Assembly: GCA_018509705.1 (NCBI GenBank)
Contig: GCA_018509705.1_3630.1
Strand: one strand, 5' to 3'
DNA length: 64,000 bases
DNA from: a phage
The translations under genes were made by a program, and so were the position numbers. The notes under the pieces were generated by a model, which saw only the letters and a list, made by a program, of their open reading frames with translations, was not told the DNA's origin and made no database searches. How positions within the stretch are numbered: the first letter of the stretch is position 1; the number at the start of each line of letters is the position of its first letter. Positions 294 through 44,022 of the stretch are shown one piece after another.

Positions 294-644
294 CTAACCA
301 GTTGTTGACATTCGAATAACTTCTTCTGGTGGCAAAACTTTGGAAAATGTGCATCTTTTACCTCTCCCTTGTGTGGATATTTCAACCACTCCCGCACATT
401 CTAAAGTTTTAACGCACGCTGCTGCTTTTGTTTTCTTTATTCCAACATCTGCTGCAATTTTCCTTGTGCTGGGTGTGAAGCGTGAACTTCCTCCAAGCTT
501 ATACCAGTTGTGCAGGTAGCAGTATACGATCTTGTCATACAAGTCAAGAACAACAACCTCCCCAGTTGTGTCATTCAAAACTTTTGACATAGATAGTATT
601 TCAAGGGGGACTTTAAGATATAGCAGCTTATCCCCATCTTTCAT
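294..644 (-). CDS. Hypothetical protein, possible helix-turn-helix DNA-binding protein
   Basis: 116-aa ORF; segment TRKIAADVGIKKTKAAACVKTLECAGVVE resembles an HTH/winged-helix recognition region. Confidence 0.4.
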   Translation of the reverse strand: MKDGDKLLYLKVPLEILSMSKVLNDTTGEVVVLDLYDKIVYCYLHNWYKLGGSSRFTPSTRKIAADVGIKKTKAAACVKTLECAGVVEISTQGRGKRCTFSKVLPPEEVIRMSTTG

Positions 645-691: not shown

Positions 692-1246
692 TTACTCCCC
701 GCTGTCAATAGCAAAACTCATTGCAATACGGTATGCCTCTTCTAATGGTAAGAGTCTCCCCCACACATCCCAACCGACATCAAACTGTCTGCCAAACAAC
801 TGTTGTGTGGTTCCGTGAGCATGACCGAACAGTTGGACTGATCCGTGAGGCTTTCTGTTCCACTTTGCAAACTGGTAATGGCTCATACAGATCAAATTCT
901 TGTTGTGGCGAAGCTCGTAATAATCTACAACCTCATGACCGAACTCTTTCATAATTCTGACAGTCGTCCTTGTGTCATGGTTACCACGAACAAGAATAAT
1001 ATGTCCGTTCAACATATTTAGAACATCTGGGAGCAATTTGTTGATATTCTTATCATTAGTGCACGCAATATCTCCCAAGTGAAACACAGTGTCTGCAGGT
1101 GACACAACAGAGTTCCACTTGGTGATGATTCCCGCATTCATACTGTCAAGATTGTGATCATACTGAGATCTGTGTTTTTGACATGAGTCGAACTCCATGA
1201 CCCGCTGGTGGAGAAAGTGTGTGTCGCTTGTTACAAAGTATTTCAT
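692..1246 (-). CDS. Calcineurin-like metallophosphoesterase (Ser/Thr phosphatase-like)
   Basis: Motifs VTSDTHFLH, HLGDIA and VRGNHD match the metallophosphatase signature; start moved to internal Met (MKYF) to remove overlap with upstream gene. Confidence 0.75.
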   Translation of the reverse strand: MKYFVTSDTHFLHQRVMEFDSCQKHRSQYDHNLDSMNAGIITKWNSVVSPADTVFHLGDIACTNDKNINKLLPDVLNMLNGHIILVRGNHDTRTTVRIMKEFGHEVVDYYELRHNKNLICMSHYQFAKWNRKPHGSVQLFGHAHGTTQQLFGRQFDVGWDVWGRLLPLEEAYRIAMSFAIDSGE

Positions 1247-1253
1247 ACATTCC

Positions 1254-1721
1254 TCATTTAAGTTTAATGCAGTTTTTAAGCTGGCGTTCCATACGATCCA
1301 CAACCCTGTCTGGAACATCATGAATGCTTTTATTACCATGGCGGTTTTCAACCACGATCACGGTATAACTATACCCATGACTGATCGCCATGTCAATATA
1401 TTCTTGCACATATTTTTCTTTTGTAAACGTATTACTTACCACGATACGGTCGTATCCCATACGCATCATATCTTCTACGTTATCTTTGCACCATTTTGCT
1501 GCAAGTGTTACTTTACTTGCATCCCAGTTGTAATTTCCATCATCGTCGTACCAGAACATGTCGTTCTCAAAATGTGGATACAGACCTTCTAAAGATAGCG
1601 CATTTGCCAGTGTTGATTTGCCAGACCCTGGTAGACCACGCACGATATATAGCATTTTAGACATAGTAATCCTCCGTTTTAATTTCAACGATAGTATACC
1701 CAACTGTTTTGTTAATTTCAA
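1254..1721 (-). CDS. P-loop NTPase, polynucleotide-kinase-like
   Basis: Walker A GLPGSGKST near N-terminus; about 150 aa; immediately upstream of the phosphatase on same strand; start may be internal Met (MSKMLYIV). Confidence 0.6.
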   Translation of the reverse strand: MKLTKQLGILSLKLKRRITMSKMLYIVRGLPGSGKSTLANALSLEGLYPHFENDMFWYDDDGNYNWDASKVTLAAKWCKDNVEDMMRMGYDRIVVSNTFTKEKYVQEYIDMAISHGYSYTVIVVENRHGNKSIHDVPDRVVDRMERQLKNCIKLK

Positions 1722-1724
1722 GTG

Positions 1725-1758
1725 TTGACACTAGGTTATTTGTGTGGCAGGATAGACT
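1725..1758 (+). promoter_or_regulatory. Candidate sigma70-type promoter (TTGACA at 1725-1730, weak -10)
   Basis: Exact -35 hexamer upstream of first + strand gene; -10 is poor. Confidence 0.35.
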
Positions 1759-1785
1759 GACAAAATGACAAATGAGGAATGTATA

Positions 1786-2700
1786 ATGAAGTATTTTAAT
1801 GCAGACGACCTAGTTGACAAAGGTCTTGTAACCAGCAGATATTACCCAGATCTTGGGTTAAAGATCTATAAATATGCCAGAAAAGTATTCTACAACAACT
1901 TATGGCATTTGTCTCCTCGATTACTGGAGTGCCGAGGCATTGTTGTCGGTAATGAAGGAAATGTTGTGGCATGGCCCTTCACAAAAGTGTTTAACTTGGG
2001 AGAAAACTCCACCAACCTGCCTGACAATAAGCTTGTGACGGCGGTAGAGAAAAAGAACGGATTCCTTGGTGTGGTGTCATCTCATAAAGGTGAACTATTG
2101 TTCTCAACAACCGGGTCTCTTGATTCTCCATATTGTAACCTTGCAAAGGAAACCATCCAGGAGCAATGCAGTAATTTAGATCTTATCAAGAAGGTTATGG
2201 GCAATGAAAACATGACATTCATGTTTGAAATTTGTCACCCTTCAGATCCGCATATTGTTCAGGAAGATCATGGTGCATATTTGATAGGTTGCAGATATAA
2301 TGATTCTGGAATAATGCTACCAGAAGCAGCTTTAGATGGGATTGCCAAATACCTTGGTGCAAAACGTCCTCACACTGTGCGTGAAATTCCGTTCAGTTAT
2401 GCAAAAGAATTGGCTGCAGAAACAAGAGGTGAAGGGTATATGATTCGTAAGCCTTACTACCCTTATGATCTGCAGCTGAAGATTAAGTCTCCATACTATC
2501 TGGCACGGAAGGCCGTAATGAGGGGTAAAGCTTGGAAGATTTGGGATGATGATATCTTTAAACGTGTTGACGAAGAGTTTTACGGCATGGTAAACTTCAT
2601 TCGTAACAACTACACAGAGGATGTATGGAACTGCCTCCTGGAGCAGGAACGCCGTGAGATACTTGATTACTATTTCCACAACGAGAACTATATGCAATGA
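1786..2700 (+). CDS. Nucleotidyltransferase-superfamily polynucleotide ligase, probably RNA ligase
   Basis: Motif I-like EKKNGF (KxNG), motif IV EGYMIRK, motif V LKIKSP; start set at second ATG (1786) preceded by GAGGA. Confidence 0.5.
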   Translation: MKYFNADDLVDKGLVTSRYYPDLGLKIYKYARKVFYNNLWHLSPRLLECRGIVVGNEGNVVAWPFTKVFNLGENSTNLPDNKLVTAVEKKNGFLGVVSSHKGELLFSTTGSLDSPYCNLAKETIQEQCSNLDLIKKVMGNENMTFMFEICHPSDPHIVQEDHGAYLIGCRYNDSGIMLPEAALDGIAKYLGAKRPHTVREIPFSYAKELAAETRGEGYMIRKPYYPYDLQLKIKSPYYLARKAVMRGKAWKIWDDDIFKRVDEEFYGMVNFIRNNYTEDVWNCLLEQERREILDYYFHNENYMQ

Positions 2701-3047
2701 AGAAGTTGATTGTGTGGCTAGATGACTTGAGAGATCCGTCAAATTATGGGCTCCCAGACGCTATTTGGCTAAAGAATTCCTCCGAGTTTATGGATTTTAT
2801 TAACGATAATAAAAAGCTCTACAGACGCGTTTCTGAGTGGCATATGGACAACGACCTTGGAGAGGTATTCGAAGGGTACGATTGCCTATCCATGTTGGAG
2901 GAAAAGTTTGTATTTGGTAAGCCTCCTGTAGTTGACAACGTGAAGATTTTCGTGCATACTTCTAACCCATCAGCGGCTCGTAAATTCATGCTTGCGACTG
3001 ACTCGTTTAAAAAGTTTGGAATAGAGATTAAACAAAACATCTACTGA
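2697..3047 (+). CDS. Hypothetical protein
   Basis: 116-aa ORF overlapping upstream stop (ATGA coupling); no motif recognised. Confidence 0.45.
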   Translation: MKKLIVWLDDLRDPSNYGLPDAIWLKNSSEFMDFINDNKKLYRRVSEWHMDNDLGEVFEGYDCLSMLEEKFVFGKPPVVDNVKIFVHTSNPSAARKFMLATDSFKKFGIEIKQNIY

Positions 3048-3055
3048 GGACACTT

Positions 3056-3817
3056 ATGCGACGACTGATTGTTATCTCCGGTGCTGGTTTGAGTGCTGAA
3101 TCTGGTATTCCCACTTTCCGATCTGGTAGCACTGCAATGTGGGAGAATTTCAGCATCGATGAGGTGTGCAACATCCACACCTTTGCCAAGAACTACTATA
3201 AGGTGCATGACTTTTACAATGCACGTCGTGTAGCTTTAGGCAGTGTTGAGCCTAACCTTGCACATCTTCGGATCGCTGAGTGGTATTCCCGCTGGTCTGG
3301 TCGTGTGATCAACCTTACCACCAATGTAGATGATTTGCTGGAGCGTGCTGGTGTAAAACATGAAGATATTTTACATGTCCACGGGTATTTGCCAGAAATA
3401 GTCTATGAGGACGATGAAGGAAGTGACGTCATTAAGGACATTGGATACTCTGAGGTAGACGCAGGAAAGTATACCTGGGTTAAGCCTAATGTGGTGTTCT
3501 TCGGAGAAGTAGCTCCGAAGTATACAGACATGTATGACCTGTTGACTTCTCTTACGAGCAATGATATGGTTATCCTTGTAGGGTGCTCCAACACAGTTAT
3601 CAATTTTAACTGGGAGCTATTCCCTGCCTGCAATAAGGGAACCAAACTACTGATCGTTAATAAATACGACTCACAGCATCTAGAGGAGAATGGCATTTCA
3701 CGTAGTGATATTTACCAGTATGAGGATCGCGGCATCCCAGTTTGGTTTAACGGTGCGGTTGATGCCTTCTCTGATAAAACATTCATTGAGACTGTAGAAA
3801 ACTTTATGGAACTTTAA
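3056..3817 (+). CDS. Sir2-family (sirtuin-like) protein lacking the zinc-ribbon cysteines
   Basis: GAGLSAESGIPTFRSG (GAGxSxxSGIPxFR), TTNVDDLLERAG (TQNID-like), HVHG catalytic His, VVFFGE; no CxxC pairs. Confidence 0.75.
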   Translation: MRRLIVISGAGLSAESGIPTFRSGSTAMWENFSIDEVCNIHTFAKNYYKVHDFYNARRVALGSVEPNLAHLRIAEWYSRWSGRVINLTTNVDDLLERAGVKHEDILHVHGYLPEIVYEDDEGSDVIKDIGYSEVDAGKYTWVKPNVVFFGEVAPKYTDMYDLLTSLTSNDMVILVGCSNTVINFNWELFPACNKGTKLLIVNKYDSQHLEENGISRSDIYQYEDRGIPVWFNGAVDAFSDKTFIETVENFMEL

Positions 3818-3830
3818 AAGGAGACCTTTA

Positions 3831-4544
3831 ATGCTGAATACTAAATTAATTGACAACCTGGAAAAACTATCCCAACCTGAAAACTACCTTTGGTCTGCCA
3901 ACTGGGTGGAAAACTGGAACCGTGTGGCAGCTAAAGTGAAAAAATCATACACACCATTCGAATTACAGCTTAGCTTCATTGAGGAAGAGTTCAATGAAGT
4001 TTTGGAAGAGCTGGAGAAAGGTGATGGTGGAGATCACCTGCTAAAAGAGGCCTGCGATCTTCACGTTGTCACAAGTTATGCAGCTTATCTTGTTAATGAC
4101 AATCACGAAAAGTGGTCAAACCTGTTTGATAATCCACGAGGTCTTAAGTTCAAGATCGGTGAGTTCTATGACACACTGATCGCTGCGAAAAACACATCCA
4201 AGCAAAGAGCGTCAGCTTACCGTTTAGCGGAGTTGTCAACAGCTTTGCTGTTCCAGCTTCGCGGCGATGTGTGCGGGATGATGCGTAAGGTTCTCAAATC
4301 GAATGACAGCAAGTTTGCACGGGTCAACCATCTACGGTATTCACACGGTGCCAGTGCAGATATGCCTGCTGAACAACTCATCGAGTTGGAGATTAAAGAT
4401 CTTGAGCGACGCTTTGATGGTCGATATGAAGGTTTTGTTGCTAAGGAAGAATTCTACAACGGTAATAAAGTTATCATATTCCTCGACAGTAAAGGTAAGA
4501 TTATGAAGCCTTCAAGCTTCAAGGATGTAACAGAATATATTTAA
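3831..4544 (+). CDS. MazG-like nucleotide pyrophosphohydrolase (putative)
   Basis: Acidic EEEFNEVLEELEK...EACDLHVV segment resembles the MazG EExxE...D motif. Confidence 0.45.
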   Translation: MLNTKLIDNLEKLSQPENYLWSANWVENWNRVAAKVKKSYTPFELQLSFIEEEFNEVLEELEKGDGGDHLLKEACDLHVVTSYAAYLVNDNHEKWSNLFDNPRGLKFKIGEFYDTLIAAKNTSKQRASAYRLAELSTALLFQLRGDVCGMMRKVLKSNDSKFARVNHLRYSHGASADMPAEQLIELEIKDLERRFDGRYEGFVAKEEFYNGNKVIIFLDSKGKIMKPSSFKDVTEYI

Positions 4545-4550
4545 TAATAT

Positions 4551-4578
4551 AGCCGGGGCGATCCCGGCTTTACTTGTT
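4551..4578 (+). terminator. Rho-independent terminator
   Basis: Hairpin AGCCGGGGCGATCCCGGCT followed by T-rich tract, just after the MazG-like gene. Confidence 0.55.
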
Positions 4579-4917: not shown

Positions 4918-5173
4918 TCTTGCTAAACCTGTAGAAGCACACCAGTTTGACGGAAGCTCTTCATCAGTATCTGATCTGCAACGGTGGATTGATACAGGTG
5001 TGTTTACATCGTCACCTGTTCGGACCAGAGATCTTCGTCGTATGTGTGAGCTTGTAGAGCCGTTTGGTAACCTAGTCTTGTACCAGGGTGATTGGCTTGT
5101 TGATTTTATGGGTGACTGGTTGGTAATGAGTAAAGAAGAGATGTTTAAAATTTTTAAGGAAGAGGTAGAGTAA
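4904..5173 (+). CDS. Hypothetical protein
   Basis: 89-aa ORF; stop overlaps ligase start. Confidence 0.4.
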   Translation: MPLFNLAKPVEAHQFDGSSSSVSDLQRWIDTGVFTSSPVRTRDLRRMCELVEPFGNLVLYQGDWLVDFMGDWLVMSKEEMFKIFKEEVE

Positions 5174-6438
5174 TGCATCAATTCAAAACAACACTTTATG
5201 CTCGCAATAAAGACGGGTCCATCCAGATGTGGAAAGTAGATACAAGCGGCAACGAGGTTATTGTTGTGTTCGGCAGGGTTGGTGGCGCTGTACAATCAAA
5301 AACCACAAAATGTGAAGCCAAAAACATCGGGCGATCCAACGAAACTACAGCAGAAGAACAAGCTGTTTTAGAGGCGCAGTCTAAATGGGAAAAGCAAGTC
5401 CGGCTGGGTTACAAAGAAAATGTCGAAGACCTTGAGGCCATTGACATTTCACCTATGCTGGCGCAAGATGCTTCGAAAAAACCACACGCTATTGTGTATC
5501 CATGCCACCTGCAACACAAACTTGACGGGAACCGTTGCTTTGTCAAATTCGTAGACGGTGTACCTAAATTCATCTCTCGCGGTAACAAAGTGTATGAGCC
5601 GAAAGGTAACATCCTCCGTGAGCTACAAGACCTGCATGAAGAAACAGGCTTTGATGAATTTGATGGGGAGTTCTACATTCACGGTTTACCGTTGCAGAAA
5701 ATAACCTCCCTCGTTAAGAAATGGCGTAGTCTGGAAGACATTGAGAAAGAAATTGATAAGGATTTCATGGCAGACATAAAACGCCGTGAGAAAGCGATCA
5801 AGGCCGGAGAGGAGACATGGAAAGACTTCAACAAGGTTGATCATCCGGTTTATGAAGAACCTGTCCGTGATTCTGATCGGTATGGAGGTTACTGCTCTTA
5901 TGACCTGAAACTGATGGTGTTCGATGTTCCTGATTGCATCCATCGCTGGGAAGATCGGGCCACAAATCTTCAGGAAGTTATTGATTATTGTGAAGTTAAC
6001 CATCTCACAAACGTCGAGGGTGTTCCTTTCAAGATCGCCTACAACGAGGAAGAGGTTCGCAACTCCATCGGACAGTACATGCAGGAAGGTTATGAAGGAT
6101 CTATTATTCGTAACTTCTGTGGCACCTACGAATACGGTCAACGCTCTACTGATCTGCTCAAGTGGAAACTGTTCACCGATGTTGAAGCAAAAGTGATCGG
6201 TGTTGAAAAAGATAAAAACGGGGAAGGTGTTCTTATCTGCGAAGAGAAAGATGGGACACAATGCAAATGCAAAATGAAAGGCACTTTTGCCGTAAGGAAC
6301 TACGAAAAATGCTGCTCATATGTTGGCAAATTTATCACGATAAAATTCCAACAGCGTACGGTGGACGGTGTGCCTCAATTCCCTGTGGGTATCGCATTCC
6401 GCAATCTTAATCCAGAAACTTGGGAGGTGCTGGAATAA
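5173..6438 (+). CDS. ATP-dependent DNA ligase
   Basis: Motif I HKLDGNR (KxDGxR), FDGEFYIHG, EGSIIRN, LKWK. Confidence 0.75.
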   Translation: MHQFKTTLYARNKDGSIQMWKVDTSGNEVIVVFGRVGGAVQSKTTKCEAKNIGRSNETTAEEQAVLEAQSKWEKQVRLGYKENVEDLEAIDISPMLAQDASKKPHAIVYPCHLQHKLDGNRCFVKFVDGVPKFISRGNKVYEPKGNILRELQDLHEETGFDEFDGEFYIHGLPLQKITSLVKKWRSLEDIEKEIDKDFMADIKRREKAIKAGEETWKDFNKVDHPVYEEPVRDSDRYGGYCSYDLKLMVFDVPDCIHRWEDRATNLQEVIDYCEVNHLTNVEGVPFKIAYNEEEVRNSIGQYMQEGYEGSIIRNFCGTYEYGQRSTDLLKWKLFTDVEAKVIGVEKDKNGEGVLICEEKDGTQCKCKMKGTFAVRNYEKCCSYVGKFITIKFQQRTVDGVPQFPVGIAFRNLNPETWEVLE

Positions 6439-6561: not shown

Positions 6562-7050
6562 ATGAAACTTGATAAAAATGTTCAACGAAAAGCTTTCTTG
6601 GATATGATCGCATATTCGGAAGGAACAGATAATGGTAGACAACCTACCAAGGATCGGGGGTACGATGTCATAGTCGGCGGCAAGCTGTTCAGCGATTACA
6701 GCAAGCATCCCGGTGTTTACGTTAAGCTAAATGCTAAACTTACCTCCTCCGCTGCTGGGCGTTACCAGGTTTTGGAGAAGTTTGCTAAACACTACATGAA
6801 ACAGTTAGGATTACCAGATTTTGGCCCTGCCAGTCAGGACAAGATTGCGTTGCAACTGATCCGTGAGTGCAAGGCTCTCGCCGACATTGATGAAGGGCGT
6901 ATTCATCAGGCCATTTATAAATGCCGCAGCCGCTGGGCAAGCTTCCCACCACCGCCAGGGGCTGGAAAGCTGTACAATCAGCGAGCAGAAAGTATAGACA
7001 AGATGCTGGAGATCTTTAAGAGGGCAGGTGGAGTTGTTACAGATGAGTAA
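6562..7050 (+). CDS. Endolysin, lambda R-type lytic transglycosylase
   Basis: Near-colinear similarity to phage lambda R as recalled (QRKAFLDM..SEGTDNGRQ..GYDVIVGG..AGRYQ). Confidence 0.9.
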   Translation: MKLDKNVQRKAFLDMIAYSEGTDNGRQPTKDRGYDVIVGGKLFSDYSKHPGVYVKLNAKLTSSAAGRYQVLEKFAKHYMKQLGLPDFGPASQDKIALQLIRECKALADIDEGRIHQAIYKCRSRWASFPPPPGAGKLYNQRAESIDKMLEIFKRAGGVVTDE

Positions 7051-7723
7051 CGGGATTGACTGGTGGAGTGTCTTTAGATACGATACAGGCACTGGAAGGT
7101 TGTTTTGGAAGTCCCCACCAAAAAACAAACCTCAACTAATGGGAAAGGAGGCTGGATGTACTAACAACGGGTACAGGGATATAGTCTATCGTGGCGTGCA
7201 TTACTACAGGCATAGATTGGTGTGGGAGATGCATTATGGACCAATCCCAGAAGGGTACGAAGTTGATCACATAAAGCCACTTTTCTATTCCGACGGTGTT
7301 GCGGATGATAGGGTAGAAAACCTACAACTGTTAACACCAGAAGAAAATGCAAAAAAGGCGGCAGATGACGGATGCCTGGCACGCAAGATACCTAAATCCA
7401 ATACTGGACATTTGGGTGTATATTTTCATGCTAGATCTGGAAGGTATGCTGCTTTTGGTAAGGTAGGTCATTACTATAAGAAAGACCTAGGAGAATACGA
7501 TACCTTAGAAGAGGCCATTGCTGCTCAAAAGTCTTTTGAAAGTGGCACGTTTGTCAGGGAATATCGTGGACAGCCTTTAGGGAGGGATAAATCTAGAGGT
7601 GTCAGATTTGAAGCAGATAGGGGCAAATGGAAAGTAACTTTCAGAGGAAAAACGCTAGGCAGGTTTGACACCAAAGAGTCTGCTGAAGCGTGTTACGCAA
7701 AGGCTCTTACTGAAAGCTTGTAA
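7043..7723 (+). CDS. HNH homing endonuclease with AP2-like DNA-binding domain
   Basis: HRLVWEMHYGPIPEGYEVDHIKP...NLQLLTPEEN (HNH) plus TGHLGVYFHARSGRYAAFG (AP2-like); start at in-frame ATG 7043. Confidence 0.7.
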   Translation: MSNGIDWWSVFRYDTGTGRLFWKSPPKNKPQLMGKEAGCTNNGYRDIVYRGVHYYRHRLVWEMHYGPIPEGYEVDHIKPLFYSDGVADDRVENLQLLTPEENAKKAADDGCLARKIPKSNTGHLGVYFHARSGRYAAFGKVGHYYKKDLGEYDTLEEAIAAQKSFESGTFVREYRGQPLGRDKSRGVRFEADRGKWKVTFRGKTLGRFDTKESAEACYAKALTESL

Positions 7724-7791
7724 CAGTATCATTGACATAACCACACGGACGTGGTATTGTCACCTCATAAAATGTTTGAGAGGGTTTAACC

Positions 7792-39980: not shown

Positions 39981-40003
39981 ACTATCTATGAAGGAGATTT
40001 GAG

Positions 40004-40330
40004 ATGGGTATACCGATTACTGTAAAAGAGCTAAATGAACGTGATGCAGGTGGTCTATGGCCTGCACGAAAAATCCGCTGCGTCTATATGAAAGAGAATC
40101 TTGAACATCTTGATCAACAGATAAAGGTCGGCGATATTTTCGAGGTCTTCTATTCCAATCGGCGCAACTGGGAAACCATTCAGCCTTCTGGTTTTGTTCT
40201 TGCCAAACTTGACACTGGAGAAGTGATTATCCCTGGGTTGGATATTGTCTTCGAAATTATCCAGGAGTGGGATCCGGATAAGATTAGATACGAAGAATTA
40301 TTCGGTAAAGGTATTATCAAACCTGTGTGA
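40004..40330 (+). CDS. Hypothetical protein
   Basis: 108-aa ORF with GAAGGAGA RBS. Confidence 0.45.
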   Translation: MGIPITVKELNERDAGGLWPARKIRCVYMKENLEHLDQQIKVGDIFEVFYSNRRNWETIQPSGFVLAKLDTGEVIIPGLDIVFEIIQEWDPDKIRYEELFGKGIIKPV

Positions 40331-40338
40331 GGTGGATT

Positions 40339-40638
40339 ATGTCTACAAAGGCGGCTAAATACTCCTATATGCCATCAACCTCTGCAGAGGTAGACTTTAG
40401 TTTCGATGTGTTTCCACTGTTTGAGGTGGTTCTGGCATACCCAACAATACTATCTACTCCTGAATCACTTGTGCCTGTTAAGTTGCAGAACGCTATGCAT
40501 TCTATGCACTACAACAATAAATGTAGGCACAGATGGTGTCAGGACGAGGAGAGAGATTTGGATAGTTTGAGAGATTTTGACAGTCACCTTTTGACACCTT
40601 TCAGCTACTCCAACCTTGATAAGCCTTCATGGGTATAG
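40339..40638 (+). CDS. Hypothetical protein
   Basis: Start reset to ATG 40339 with GAGGTGG RBS. Confidence 0.4.
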   Translation: MSTKAAKYSYMPSTSAEVDFSFDVFPLFEVVLAYPTILSTPESLVPVKLQNAMHSMHYNNKCRHRWCQDEERDLDSLRDFDSHLLTPFSYSNLDKPSWV

Positions 40639-40663
40639 CAAAATATCAAATTTAAGACACCTA

Positions 40664-40690
40664 GGACGCTCTGTGGCGTCCTTTTCTTTA
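40664..40690 (+). terminator. Rho-independent terminator
   Basis: AGGACGCTCTGTGGCGTCCT hairpin plus T-tract. Confidence 0.6.
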
Positions 40691-40851
40691 TATGGTGCAC
40701 GATTGCATACCTTGGACAAATAATCTCGTTACAGAGCGTTTAAGGACGGTCTACAAACAAATCTCTCTTTCGAGCGTAGCGAGAACGCACGTCCGTTTTG
40801 ACCCAAATCACCATACGCTCGGATTTTAACCAAACCCTCGCGGCGTTTCTG

Positions 40852-40880
40852 TTGACACATTACCGCTCCAGTGATAGTAT
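40852..40880 (+). promoter_or_regulatory. Sigma70-type promoter (TTGACA-17-TAGTAT)
   Basis: Read directly. Confidence 0.55.
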
Positions 40881-40912
40881 CCACACATAGTTTGTAGAAT
40901 ATGGAGTACACA

Positions 40913-41002
40913 ATGAGAACATTGTCCGAAGTTTTAGTGGTGATCCTGATGATTATTACGTCCATAGCGGCTGTTGCCGGAATACTCACGGGTGGAACAT
41001 GA
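40913..41002 (+). CDS. Small hydrophobic peptide (29 aa)
   Basis: Hand-translated MRTLSEVLVVILMIITSIAAVAGILTGGT; GGAG RBS; ATGA overlap with next ORF. Confidence 0.4.
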   Translation: MRTLSEVLVVILMIITSIAAVAGILTGGT

Positions 41003-41211
41003 TCAACACACATGCATCTGAAGAGACATCCGAAGGAGTGACCATATGTCCCTTGGCTGATCCAGTGAAAGAGGAAAACTTCGATTCTGAAGATTCTCCA
41101 TCTTCGCTCCAGGTAGATCCTGAGGCTGATGATCTAACGTGGGAAGACATCGTAGACATCTGGTTCTCTATTATGCCTGAGCACGAAGAGTTCAGGGGTG
41201 GTAGACTATGA
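40999..41211 (+). CDS. Small highly acidic protein
   Basis: 70 aa rich in D/E. Confidence 0.4.
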   Translation: MINTHASEETSEGVTICPLADPVKEENFDSEDSPSSLQVDPEADDLTWEDIVDIWFSIMPEHEEFRGGRL

Positions 41212-41332
41212 AGCACCGAGCCCACACAGGTTCCTCATGCTAAAGCATGGCCTGAAGAGGCAAACGTGCATAATTCCAGTGCATTGGAACGTATAAAACC
41301 CAGTTCACACTCTCATTTCCAGAGGAGATTTC

Positions 41333-41548
41333 ATGAAGATAGAAATATTTGGTGGAGCTGACAACACTCGTGGCCTGATTTACCTTGAGTTCGATGAATC
41401 ATACCTGCCAGAGGTGTTAAATATGGACTCTGTTGCTGATGCTTTGGGAGTAAGTCCTAAAGATCTCTACTCTGGTGCTGAGATTGATGGTTGGGAGGAG
41501 ACCATGAACATTGATTTCAGTGAAGTAGGTGATGAACCACTGGACTGA
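41333..41548 (+). CDS. Small acidic protein (family A-like start MKIEIF)
   Basis: 71 aa; AGAGGAGA RBS. Confidence 0.45.
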   Translation: MKIEIFGGADNTRGLIYLEFDESYLPEVLNMDSVADALGVSPKDLYSGAEIDGWEETMNIDFSEVGDEPLD

Positions 41549-43034
41549 CACACAATTAGCTACCCGGCTAAAGTGCTGGGAGCACCTATAACACATCTTT
41601 CAACTAAATTTCCCACCACCACAATCACTTACCTCCCACACATGACTGTTTGCTTGTTTAGTGAGCAGTCATGCCTTGACATTCTTGCCTATCCTGATAA
41701 AATTAAGTTCTTCTCTTTTCTTTTACCGAGTAATTCGGGTTTTCTGTTCTCTTCGGTTTGAAGGGGGTATGGAGATACACCTGAGTGAACAGGGTGAACA
41801 ACCGAACCATTGGCTATGGCATTAGCATGGCGAAGCGGACGGGTGACGAAAGAGGGGCCGGAGGACACCAGTCACTGCCATATGATATATGGGTGATAAC
41901 CTGAAGAATCTGAATAAGTGTTTAAGTACCAGTCAGAGGAAAAGGTGAATGGTAGCTGAAGGGGAGGGGGGTTTCTTGTATCTTTAATTTGTATATTATG
42001 TATACACTTGTAAACCAATTTCATCTGAATCTGTTTACCACACAAAGTGGATAGAGACAAATATTACCTATTAAACTTGAATTATTTATAGAAAATACCA
42101 CAACACCACTTAAGTCTTTGATTTTACACACAAATCCTGCAGATATTCAACCTCCATATTTAACATACTTGTAACATATTCCATACTCTACCTGCCTGAT
42201 CAATTTCCCCAACTACATCCCCCATATTTTCCCTGTCTGTACTACCCCTGCCCCGCCGGGAGTCCCGTCATATCTGGCTTTCCAGCAAATATCACACCCA
42301 CAAATATCATTGCCTGAAGAGGGTTTCATCCCATAATACCTGCCTTGCCTGAAGAGGGTTTCATACGCCACGTAAATTTTTTAATTGACCCCTCCCCGCC
42401 GCCGGAAAGGTTGGCTTTTCTCGCACAGACCTGAAGAGTCAGCCAGAAATATCTGAATAGGCCCAATTCTACCCCGATTTTGACCTGACCTACAGGAGCG
42501 CTGCCCTGTCAGGAGCCGTAGCGACTGGAGTGCTGCCAGGCGGACGAAATGGGAATACTTCTCATTCTTATAACAATTCTCAAATATCGAGGCAGTGAGG
42601 CAAATTAATAGGCCAGGCCGTTCACACAGTGGCACAACATTTGCAACCTATCCTGTGGGGATGAATGAGAATACCTATCATTGTGAGAACCATTATCATT
42701 ACGGGCAATTTAACATAATACCCATTATGCGCACCACTGGCGATACATACAGGGATTGATAACATGGGTTACTGTTTACGCACATAACAATTATATTTCT
42801 TACCATTTGTGTGGGATATAGTTAGCAGCCGATAGATTAGATATTAACCTGCAGACTTCTGACCGTCCAGACGTCTAAACGCCCACACACCAAGGATTAT
42901 ACATACACTCCTGAATGTAAACAGGGCCGCAAAAATGCTACCATACAAGCTTGTAAATTTTTCATGCAGCACTTGACAAAGAGGAGAAAAACTTGTCTGA
43001 CATAATGTGACCTAACTGACACAACATGACACTT

Positions 43035-43121
43035 TTACACACCTATTAGTTTACACACTGGATTGTTTACATTCCTGATTGTTCACATGCTAACCATTTA
43101 CATGATTGACTGTTTACACAC
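43035..43121. repeat. Six phased iteron-like repeats of TTTACA/TGTTTACA at about 16-bp spacing
   Basis: Copies begin near 43035, 43050, 43066, 43082, 43099, 43112. Confidence 0.6.
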
Positions 43122-43130
43122 CGATAATCA

Positions 43131-43394
43131 GCCATGCCATTCGTTTGCATGACAATAATTATACATGACAATAATCGCACTGATTATAATTAGCATGACA
43201 TAATATAAAAGCAGGGCAACTATTAGCAGATCTATAGTTGCCTTGCTTGTCATGTCATGATTAACTAAATACAAGGCAACTATGATCTGATTAATAGTTT
43301 GCAGACAAACTATCACGGGGGTGATGGTTACTGCTTTTATATTATGTCGCGACTCCGTCGCGCCATGCCATTCGTTTGCATAGTTGCCTTATTG
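43131..43394. repeat. Composite dyad region: 20-bp direct repeat GCCATGCCATTCGTTTGCAT (43131-43150, 43362-43381) framing an 18-bp inverted repeat and multiple GCAACTAT sites
   Basis: Inverted arms GACATAATATAAAAGCAG (43197-43214) and CTGCTTTTATATTATGTC (43331-43348); GCAACTAT in both orientations. Confidence 0.7.
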
Positions 43395-43991
43395 TTACAG
43401 ATAAAATAATTGTATTGTTAATTATTTCTTATCTTTCTATTAGTCATCTAATGATTTCAGTTAATATAGTAACGTACAGTAAACATTAGACGACTAAAGA
43501 TTTCTCTGCTTATGGTAACCTAACGTGACAATTCCAGACTGTTTACGAAAAATGTTGACACCTGGGCCGATTTATGTTATGCAGTTTACACGAATAATTA
43601 TTTTATGCAGGTATTGACTATTCCGTTATTCTATGGTTGGAATAAATGCTTAGCAGGCTATAGAATGGCGAGCGTACGTAAATTCTGAGATCTGGCGGCT
43701 ATAGTTATACTCGATTTTTCACGTAGAAAACGCTTTTGTAGTTATGTAAGTGTATGACTTATAAAGATTTTTAGTTGTTGACAAGCTATTGAAGATATGC
43801 ATCAGGTTAAATTTTGTGCAAATGCTGCATTATGTGCAATTTTGGAAGGAAAAACGTGTAAAAATGGCCCTGCTACCACACAATGAAAAATTATGCAATA
43901 GTTATTTTATATGTATGTTTGTACAGTGGGGTTAATTGCTGGCTTGTTGATTATTCCATTTGCCAGGCGGGGCCATTTGTGGTAGGAAAAG

Positions 43992-44022
43992 AGGAGACAA
44001 AAAGAAAGGGGCTTTAAGCCCC
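43992..44022 (-). terminator. Rho-independent terminator for the leftward gene block
   Basis: GGGGCTTTAAGCCCC hairpin followed on the - strand by TTTCTTTTT. Confidence 0.55.

Follow-up and report, generated by a model that had tools for sequence, protein, structure and literature searches.

Defenses that cut tRNA (PrrC, RloC, retron effectors, Cas13, Schlafen-like nucleases, and others) are now recognized as widespread. Phage T4 counters one of them, the anticodon nuclease PrrC, by a tRNA repair pathway made up of Pnkp and Rnl1, and to our knowledge this is the sole phage repair answer tested so far. In bacteria, Pnkp joins a kinase, a metallophosphoesterase (MPP), and a ligase, and it heals 2',3'-cyclic phosphate ends (PMC3675462). 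Here we describe a locus in a phage contig of 64,000 nucleotides (GCA_018509705.1_3630.1, assembly GCA_018509705.1; the whole stretch is called the window below), in which genes for an MPP, a P-loop kinase, and an RNA ligase lie side by side. By their sequences and folds, they are probably an RNA end-healing and sealing set distributed over separate genes, most likely one that rejoins RNA cut by host defense ribonucleases.

Such a set has already been predicted in print for phage V5, and the present finding is a rediscovery. Iyer, Burroughs, Anantharaman, and Aravind (Viruses 2022, section 3.7.3; PMC9503650) described a sirtuin-centered phage RNA-repair neighborhood, type 2, "prototyped by Escherichia phage V5 and Proteus phage Mydo." Its members are a T4-like tRNA ligase, cREC, a nucleotide kinase, a sirtuin, a MazG pyrophosphatase, and a calcineurin-like phosphoesterase. 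Calcineurin-like phosphatases have also been noted in jumbo-phage RNA repair (PMC7824862), and a 2025 paper on Pseudomonas phage Adele noted a phosphatase-less kinase and an RNA ligase next to each other. We add to this the recognition of the trio as a conserved core, the placement of the MPP in the subfamily of D29 Gp66, fusions between the enzymes, and Ro60-linked bacterial versions. A preliminary description of the window had offered the end-healing and sealing interpretation; it is upheld here, on sequence, fold, and gene context only.

The kinase, the ligase, and the phosphoesterase

By its sequence, the window is a Vequintavirus. Its first 8 kb match about 125 phage records at 90 to 99% identity, nearly all of them rV5-like E. 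coli myoviruses of that genus. The window is 95 to 98% identical to phage rV5 and its relatives, and 95.5% identical to rV5 itself. The rV5 annotation names the three homologues gp076 ("phosphoesterase"), gp077 ("ATPase"), and gp078 ("RNA ligase 1 and tail attachment protein"). All three open reading frames of the preliminary description are present on the strands it gave, and each carries the domain claimed for it, as judged by Pfam and PHROG matches:

692..1246, minus strand: MPP gene (184 aa), homologue of rV5 gp076, predicted 3'-end healing enzyme (Pfam, motifs)
1254..1664, minus strand: P-loop kinase gene (136 aa), homologue of rV5 gp077, predicted polynucleotide 5'-OH kinase (AAA_33, phrog_505, fold)
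1786..2700, plus strand: Rnl1-type ATP-dependent RNA ligase gene (304 aa), homologue of rV5 gp078, predicted sealing enzyme (PF09511)

The kinase matched Pfam AAA_33 (2.7e-10) and phrog_505, "polynucleotide kinase" (3e-10). Its Walker A motif is G10LPGSGKST18. Residues G10, G15, K16, T18, D35, N78, T79, E106, N107, and H109 are invariant in the family, and R108 is nearly so. The general base, D35, aligns with the Asp of "NRDDF" in Pnkp1, and both the P-loop and this aspartate are invariant. The preliminary description had placed the gene at 1254..1721. The gene and the Walker A motif stand, but translation probably does not begin at the TTG at 1721; ATG 1664 is the likely start. We prefer the latter because it is preceded by GGAGGA and gives a protein of 136 aa, the same as in the rV5 annotation and all homologues. 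A promoter-like TTGAAA hexamer begins with this TTG (1719-1721), and 1254-1721 is the maximal open reading frame.

We compared an AlphaFold2 model of the kinase (pLDDT 91.5) with solved structures by Foldseek. The TM-scores were 0.72 to 0.77 with the kinase of C. thermocellum Pnkp (CthPnkp), T4 Pnk, PSTK (O-phosphoseryl-tRNA kinase), Pnkp1, and mammalian PNKP, and 0.48 to 0.60 with gluconate, shikimate, and UMP-CMP kinases. A profile search matched Pnkp1 (3.5e-5), T4 Pnk (5e-5), PSTK, and CthPnkp. By TM-score, the fold lies nearer to polynucleotide kinases than to kinases of nucleotides or small molecules. The preliminary description had named a grouping with deoxynucleoside monophosphate or adenylate kinases as the result that would count against it; polynucleotide kinases came first in both comparisons. 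Sequence and model together lead us to predict a polynucleotide 5'-OH kinase.

The ligase matched PF09511 (RNA_lig_T4_1) at 57.1 bits, with a cut-off of 28.3. We placed its start at ATG 1786, which has a GAGGAA Shine-Dalgarno sequence, where the rV5 annotators chose ATG 1765. Motif I is K89-K-N91-G92, and this and the PF09511 match bear out the earlier claim of a KxNG ligase fold. In 52 sequences, K89-K-N91-G92, F147-E148, E216-G217, and K232-x-K234 are invariant, so that motifs I, III, IV, and V are all represented. K89, E148, E216-G217, and K232/K234 align to T4 K99, E159, E227-G228, and K240/K242. R50, K67, and F69 are likewise invariant and align to T4 Rnl1 R54, K75, and F77. These three N-terminal residues, and K119, are reportedly essential in T4 Rnl1 from mutagenesis in the Shuman laboratory.

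A profile of the 52 sequences, searched against 177,635 PDB sequences, had T4 Rnl1 as its sole match (6e-13), and Trl1 was not reached even at E = 10. A search of PDB sequences with the single ligase sequence gave nothing meaningful. In a fold comparison, the ligase scored 22.9 with T4 Rnl1, 20.3 to 22.4 with fungal Trl1 ligase domains, about 16 with Rnl3, 13 with Rnl5, 11.8 with Rnl2, 8.9 or less with DNA ligases, and 8.0 with the bacterial Pnkp ligase domain. Foldseek ranked the matches in the same order. The fold is therefore that of Rnl1, with an equal match to Trl1 that takes in more residues (271 to 278 aligned, versus 246 with T4 Rnl1). On the question of whether the ligase would group with DNA ligases, raised in the preliminary description, Rnl1 and Trl1 are well ahead.

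The label given to rV5 gp078 suggests another function, in which the ligase would be mainly a tail-fiber attachment factor, as T4 gp63 is, with its enzymatic motifs secondary. The family phrog_562 is also filed under "tail." However, the label was transferred from T4, the gene lies amid early nucleic-acid enzymes and not among tail genes, and the residues needed for catalysis are invariant. Past the catalytic core, on the C-terminal side, there is no similarity to T4, and bacterial chromosomes also encode members of the family, there fused to a kinase. We find a role mainly in tail attachment barely credible.

The MPP matched Pfam Metallophos_2 (28.5 bits, cut-off 27), Metallophos (27.8 bits, cut-off 21.5), and phrog_547, "phosphoesterase" (5e-51). 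BASEL phage MaxBurger encodes the identical protein (100%). Five MPP motifs (D8-x-H10, G58-D59, G88-N89-H90, H123, and G141-H142-x-H144) are invariant in 46 homologues. The residues that mark the superfamily, D8, H10, D59, N89, H90, H123, H142, and H144, are thus all conserved. In a profile search, the closest solved relative was Aquifex aq_1665 (PDB 1xm7; 7.8e-29), an uncharacterized protein on which our literature search turned up nothing useful. The MPP profile did not reach CthPnkp or lambda phosphatase among the solved structures.

Gp66 of mycobacteriophage D29 is homologous over the full length of the MPP (hhalign, 99.6%; 26% identity), and by sequence we place the MPP in the D29 Gp66 subfamily. 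In the account of Dutta et al. 2014 that PMC12287305 gives, D29 Gp66 is a 2',3'-cyclic nucleotide phosphodiesterase. This chemistry is exactly what the healing of RNA cyclic-phosphate ends would need. We predict from sequence that the MPP is a 2',3'-cyclic phosphodiesterase and 3'-phosphatase.

Linkage and fusions in other genomes

To examine the neighborhoods of the ligase, we collected 80 viral loci (38 to 89% identity), used clean hidden Markov models, and counted genes in the 55 that extend 3 kb or more to each side of the ligase gene. Within 3 kb of the ligase there was a kinase gene in 48/55, an MPP gene in 46/55, both in 40/55, and neither in 1/55. The commonest order was MPP, ligase, kinase on one strand. 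The MPP family was found in merely 1401 of 50,697 phage records. With both partners at 40 of the 55 loci, this co-location is therefore beyond chance.

Another 80 loci were anchored on the kinase, and 57 of these were used for counts. An MPP gene lay within 2.5 kb in 39/57, an Rnl1-type ligase in 19/57, and an Rnl2-type ligase (PF09414) in 10/57. Some RNA ligase of either type was present anywhere in the locus in 40/57, versus a DNA ligase within 2.5 kb in 5/57. Because the kinase-MPP pair occurs near two RNA-ligase families, it looks like a healing cassette with interchangeable RNA ligases. In five phage-like freshwater metagenome contigs (L082-L086), a distant kinase homologue overlaps a downstream MPP gene, and an Rnl2-type ligase (PF09414) lies 1.8 kb off with a SET-domain gene between; here the healing pair appears to have recombined with the other ligase family.

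The kinase and the ligase are also found fused. Kinase-ligase fusion proteins occur in 11 phage loci. Beside one such fusion without an MPP (L051), we recognized no substitute phosphoesterase. The ligase family is rare in bacteria, with 133 pattern matches among 185,579 species, mainly in Neisseria, Moraxella, Kingella, and Cardiobacterium. In about 70 of 80 loci there, it is part of a kinase-ligase fusion some 500 aa long, and the MPP gene mostly follows. In Neisseria flavescens (L185, 2738-8404), a Ro60/TROVE-vWA gene precedes the fusion, NUDIX genes are nearby, and an MPP gene is present. In Moraxella osloensis (L213, 2566-6623), the fusion follows a TerD-vWA gene, and an MPP gene is again present. 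Ro60/TROVE is a hallmark of RNA quality control. These contexts suggest that the bacterial module is related to the phage set and serves the cell in RNA repair or stress.

The same counts bear on a role in DNA-end processing, in which the kinase and MPP would clean 5'-OH/3'-phosphate DNA breaks for the ATP-dependent DNA ligase of the phage, encoded 2.5 kb downstream (5173-6438). A DNA ligase gene is present in 45/81 ligase-anchored loci, and replication and recombination genes also lie in the region. T4 Pnkp phosphorylates DNA as well as RNA. It acts in nucleic-acid repair generally, according to PMC3592404. However, the kinase keeps company with RNA ligases far more often than with a nearby DNA ligase (40/57 versus 5/57), every fusion found is to an RNA ligase domain, and Ro60/TROVE adjoins the bacterial version. 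We therefore regard DNA-end processing as highly improbable.

A search of 1.84 billion representative proteins with the ligase profile gave 9133 relatives. Among the best 150 representatives, 32 are 700 to 812 aa long, and all five of those that we scanned are AAA_33 kinase-Metallophos-RNA_lig_T4_1 fusions (P0372, P0383, P0393, P0414, and P0422 from metagenomes; one from Thiomonas, WP_461592865.1). We dropped these triple fusions as direct evidence for the window MPP, because hhalign puts their MPP domain in a PPP-like subfamily. What they show is the general logic, with an MPP in the phosphatase slot; they do not show it for the Gp66-type subfamily.

It is also conceivable that the MPP acts as a nuclease against host DNA at an early stage of infection, the role reported for Gp48 of mycobacteriophage A10ZJ24, and that its proximity to the kinase and ligase genes means nothing for function. 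Gp48 belongs with D29 Gp66, the full-length homologue of the window MPP, in the Cluster A mycobacteriophage group of metallophosphoesterases; in vitro it degraded linear, plasmid, and genomic DNA, and it was required to kill M. tuberculosis (PMC12287305). However, the MPP gene abuts or overlaps kinase or ligase genes in distant phages and in bacteria, and an MPP-superfamily domain sits in the phosphatase slot of the triple fusions. In addition, the MPP and D29 Gp66 share merely 26% identity, and the mycobacteriophage members have demonstrably diverged in function. A DNA nuclease with chance neighbors is, in our judgment, very unlikely.

The extended locus and a proposed repair route

The genes for the MPP, the kinase, and the ligase are real, but the "trio" of the preliminary description is part of a larger set. 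The ligase gene heads an operon with genes for cREC, a Sir2-family protein, and a MazG-like protein. The remaining features of the locus are as follows:

1368..1396, minus strand: sigma-70-like promoter within the kinase gene, directed towards the MPP gene (TTGACA-17-TATAGT, 11/12, consensus match only)
1665..1785, no strand: divergent intergenic region of 121 bp between the kinase and ligase genes, with promoter-like sites and two ribosome-binding sites
2697..3047, plus strand: cREC gene (116 aa), receiver-like predicted cyclic-phosphate phosphoesterase (PF20274)
3056..3817, plus strand: Sir2-family gene (253 aa), no zinc-ribbon cysteines (PF02146)
3831..4544, plus strand: gene for a MazG-like nucleotide pyrophosphohydrolase homologue (237 aa), last of the rightward unit (phrog_671)
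4551..4569, no strand: GC-rich hairpin closing the ligase-cREC-Sir2-MazG unit, terminator-like on both strands (consensus match only)

The locus consists of two divergent transcription units that encode six enzymes. In the leftward unit, 7 nt separate the kinase stop from the MPP start, and the MPP ATG (1246) has its own GAGGAA site. In the rightward unit, the ligase stop and cREC start overlap (ATGA), and the Sir2 gene begins 8 nt past cREC. The hairpin has an 8-bp stem, in which 6 of the pairs are G-C, and a T-rich tail comes after it. The preliminary description had placed a promoter between the divergent genes. Candidate sites are present there: by consensus match, a sigma-70-like site on the minus strand (1721-1693, TTGAAA-17-TATACT, 10/12), and on the plus strand a TTGACA at 1725-1730 with a poor -10. 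These lend the claim weak support. The region as a whole holds 20 sigma-70-like sites versus 13.4 +/- 3.7 expected. The site within the kinase gene corresponds to promoter P80 of the rV5 annotation.

cREC matched PF20274 (cREC_REC, "cyclic-phosphate processing receiver domain") at 54.7 bits, with a cut-off of 27, and D9, D10, D13, D51, D53, T88, S89, and K96 are conserved in 10 phage homologues. Its cyclic-phosphate function is a published prediction (PMC9503650; PMC7824862). The Sir2 protein matched PF02146 (3e-27) and conserves the NAD-binding GAGxSAESG..TFR and the catalytic N90, D92, and H109. With just 3 Cys, and none of them in a CxxC pair, it lacks the zinc ribbon usual in sirtuins, and the same pattern is seen in 12 phage homologues. 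From sequence, we predict that it removes a 2'-phosphate with NAD+, as an analogue of Tpt1/KptA, or that it is an ADP-ribosyltransferase, a role already proposed in PMC9503650. The MazG-like protein matched phrog_671 (5e-22) and had no Pfam hit; its gene is in the ligase locus, up to 10 kb away, in 14/81 loci.

Within 3 kb of the ligase, cREC was found in 9/55, Sir2 in 11/55, and MazG in 1/55 loci, all confined to rV5 relatives of about 146 kb. The conserved core is therefore the kinase-MPP-ligase trio (40/55 loci) and not the sirtuin, and cREC and Sir2 are lineage-specific additions to it. These numbers also bear on a counter-defense function, in which the MPP, cREC, Sir2, and MazG-like proteins would destroy NAD/ADP-ribose or cyclic-nucleotide immune signals while the ligase and kinase do something separate. 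The ligase, cREC, Sir2, and MazG-like genes do share an operon. Iyer et al. count cREC among domains predicted to process ADP-ribose derivatives (PMC9503650), and calcineurin-like phosphodiesterases of jumbo phages have been proposed as anti-signal enzymes (PMC7824862). However, most kinase-MPP-ligase loci have none of the other three, many genomes encode the kinase and the ligase as one fused protein, and the kinase-MPP pair accompanies two RNA-ligase families. We hold destruction of immune signals to be quite unlikely.

We favor RNA end healing and sealing because the kinase groups with polynucleotide kinases, the ligase groups with Rnl1, and the genes are linked and in places fused. The catalytic activities, the RNA substrate, and the defense that is countered we infer as follows. 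Metal-independent host defense ribonucleases would leave 2',3'-cyclic phosphate and 5'-OH ends on tRNA or other RNA; by analogy with T4, the substrate is likely tRNA cut by an anticodon nuclease. The MPP, with a binuclear center, would open the 2',3'-cyclic phosphate and probably remove it, as its motifs and its homology to D29 Gp66 suggest. The kinase would phosphorylate the 5'-OH, which is consistent with its polynucleotide-kinase fold, the P-loop Lys16, the general-base Asp35, and the fusions to ligases. The ligase, with its nucleotidyltransferase motifs and Rnl1/Trl1 fold, would form a Lys89-AMP intermediate, activate the 5'-phosphate, and join it to the 3'-OH. In line with the proposal of PMC9503650, cREC, the zinc-less Sir2, and the MazG-like enzyme probably process NAD/ADP-ribose by-products or a 2'-phosphate that is left over.

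Several observations weigh against this repair reading. The grouping of the kinase rests on TM-scores, and Foldseek E-values part polynucleotide from small-molecule kinases weakly. The equivalent of T4 Pnk Arg38 is absent, with Phe or Trp at this position family-wide (D35-M-F-W38). The ligase scored 40.2 bits against the NCBIfam T4 RnlA equivalog TIGR02308, whose cut-off is 242; by sequence, it is a member of the PF09511 family and not an RnlA orthologue. Thr109 replaces T4 K119 across the ligase family. The T4 Rnl1 profile alignment stops at residue 232 of 304. The C-terminal region has about 65 residues versus about 120 in T4, and it is helical but without sequence similarity to the T4 tRNA-specificity domain. 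The MPP domain of the triple fusions is of the PPP/lambda-like subfamily and not of the Gp66 type by hhalign, and D29 gp66 adjoins neither a kinase nor a ligase gene. Relatives of the MPP have been given other functions: A10ZJ24 Gp48 is reported as a Mn-dependent phosphodiesterase with a DNA nuclease activity that damages the host genome, and Bxb1 gp47, of the same MPP subfamily, is a recombination directionality factor (PMC12287305). Our literature search found nothing on RNA repair in Vequintavirinae and no experimental work on rV5 gp076-078. Finally, retron Eco2, a tRNA-nicking system with a Toprim nuclease, still protects against Vequintavirinae. Therefore, any benefit of the set would be specific to certain nucleases and not general.

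The six-gene set may instead run a eukaryote-like route that retains the 2'-phosphate, although we think this unlikely. In this scenario, the MPP, cREC, or both would open the cyclic phosphate to a 2'-phosphate, and sealing by the Trl1-like KxNG ligase would leave this 2'-phosphate where the ends were joined. Its removal, with NAD+, would fall to the zinc-less sirtuin, in place of Tpt1/KptA; in phages that have the trio only, the host might supply KptA for this final reaction. The specific support that our data give this route, an extension of the proposal of Iyer et al. 2022, is limited to two points: the fold matches Trl1 as well as it matches Rnl1, and the ligase and Sir2 genes share an operon. 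If true, it would mean a new activity for a Sir2 protein, the removal of a 2'-phosphate from RNA, and it would finally give bacterial KptA a substrate. This sirtuin step is the potential gain.

For the healing and sealing set that we prefer, what is at stake is which defenses it defeats and whether a Gp66-type MPP truly heals RNA 3' ends. The split kinase-MPP-ligase module is far commoner than the T4 arrangement: about 1400 phage records contain the MPP family, the representative clusters of the ligase family run into the thousands, and the kinase-MPP pair goes with two RNA-ligase families.

We found no tRNA genes in the 64-kb window. In rV5, a tRNA cluster (Pro, Met, Thr, Ser, Tyr, and Arg) lies about 2 to 3 kb left of the position where the window starts. 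It includes an unannotated 99-nt tRNA-like gene (L001, 3250-3348, about 2.7 kb left of the window; Rfam tRNA 35.5 bits) to which ARAGORN gives a four-base anticodon, "atcc." A tRNA-splicing role for the ligase, considered since the annotated 175-nt tRNA-Arg of rV5 hinted at an intron, was rejected, because ARAGORN and Rfam show a normal 75-nt tRNA.

Downstream of the MPP gene is a gene for a helix-turn-helix (HTH) protein of 116 aa (294-644, minus strand), with matches to HTH_36 and DUF6945 that are both under the Pfam cut-off. Its rV5 homologue is labeled "replication initiation protein," and a promoter-like site for it (708-679) overlaps the end of the MPP gene. Further to the right, about 790 bp of the window (6939-7727) are not in rV5. 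Here an open reading frame (7028-7723, plus strand) encodes a 231-aa protein like HNH-type homing endonucleases. The insert is placed directly after the endolysin gene (6562-7050) and overlaps its end, and related phages carry homing or HNH endonuclease annotations inside the matched 8 kb. The GC skew is positive between 2 and 42 kb and negative on either side, both in the first 2 kb and after the sign change near 42 kb (region of about 40000-44000). These switches coincide with changes in transcription direction.

Comparison with described repair systems

The window set would follow the same logic as T4 Pnkp and Rnl1, in which the 3' end is healed, the 5' end is phosphorylated, and the ends are sealed. 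The window ligase is of the same family and fold as Rnl1, and the kinase has a T4 Pnk-like fold. The two systems differ in the phosphatase, which is an MPP in the window and not a DxDxT (HAD) domain, and in that kinase and phosphatase are separate proteins. The window kinase is also without the Arg38 equivalent. The window ligase has KxNG and not KxDG, Thr for K119, and a much shorter, unrelated C-terminal region, and it falls under the NCBIfam RnlA equivalog cut-off. The preliminary description called the use of an MPP in place of a HAD domain a different enzymatic solution. This is true with respect to T4, but it is not new, because bacterial Pnkp and PMC9503650 precede it.

Bacterial Pnkp (C. 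thermocellum Pnkp; Capnocytophaga Pnkp1/Rnl/Hen1) has the kinase domain that best matches the window kinase in structure, and the triple fusions share its domain order while their ligase family differs. However, Pnkp is a single polypeptide, whereas the window has three genes on two strands and lacks both the lambda-phosphatase-like MPP domain and the Pnkp-type ligase domain. Unlike in Pnkp-Hen1, there was no methyltransferase domain among the scanned window neighbors or in the rV5 annotation beside the set. As to the MPP, D29 Gp66 and aq_1665 share full-length homology with it, but D29 gp66 has no kinase or ligase neighbor and the window MPP gene has both. Other members of the group of D29 Gp66, the Cluster A mycobacteriophage metallophosphoesterases, have been assigned the roles of DNA nuclease and recombination directionality factor.

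Fungal and plant Trl1 also carries a KxNG-type motif I. The fold of the window ligase matches it as well as it matches T4 Rnl1, over more residues (271-278 versus 246), and kinase-ligase fusions exist in relatives. However, there is no match to Trl1 at the sequence level and no 2H cyclic phosphodiesterase domain in the window set. Tpt1 may have a counterpart, as Iyer et al. 2022 proposed that phage sirtuins act like its homologue KptA and remove the 2'-phosphate (PMC9503650).

The closest described system is type 2 of Iyer et al., which is the same locus; all six of its members are present in the window, at 692-4544. Their account and ours are both predictions. They differ in where the center lies. 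The paper calls the phosphoesterase "occasional" and makes the sirtuin central, whereas we found the kinase-MPP-ligase core in 40/55 loci, Sir2 in 11/55, and cREC in 9/55.

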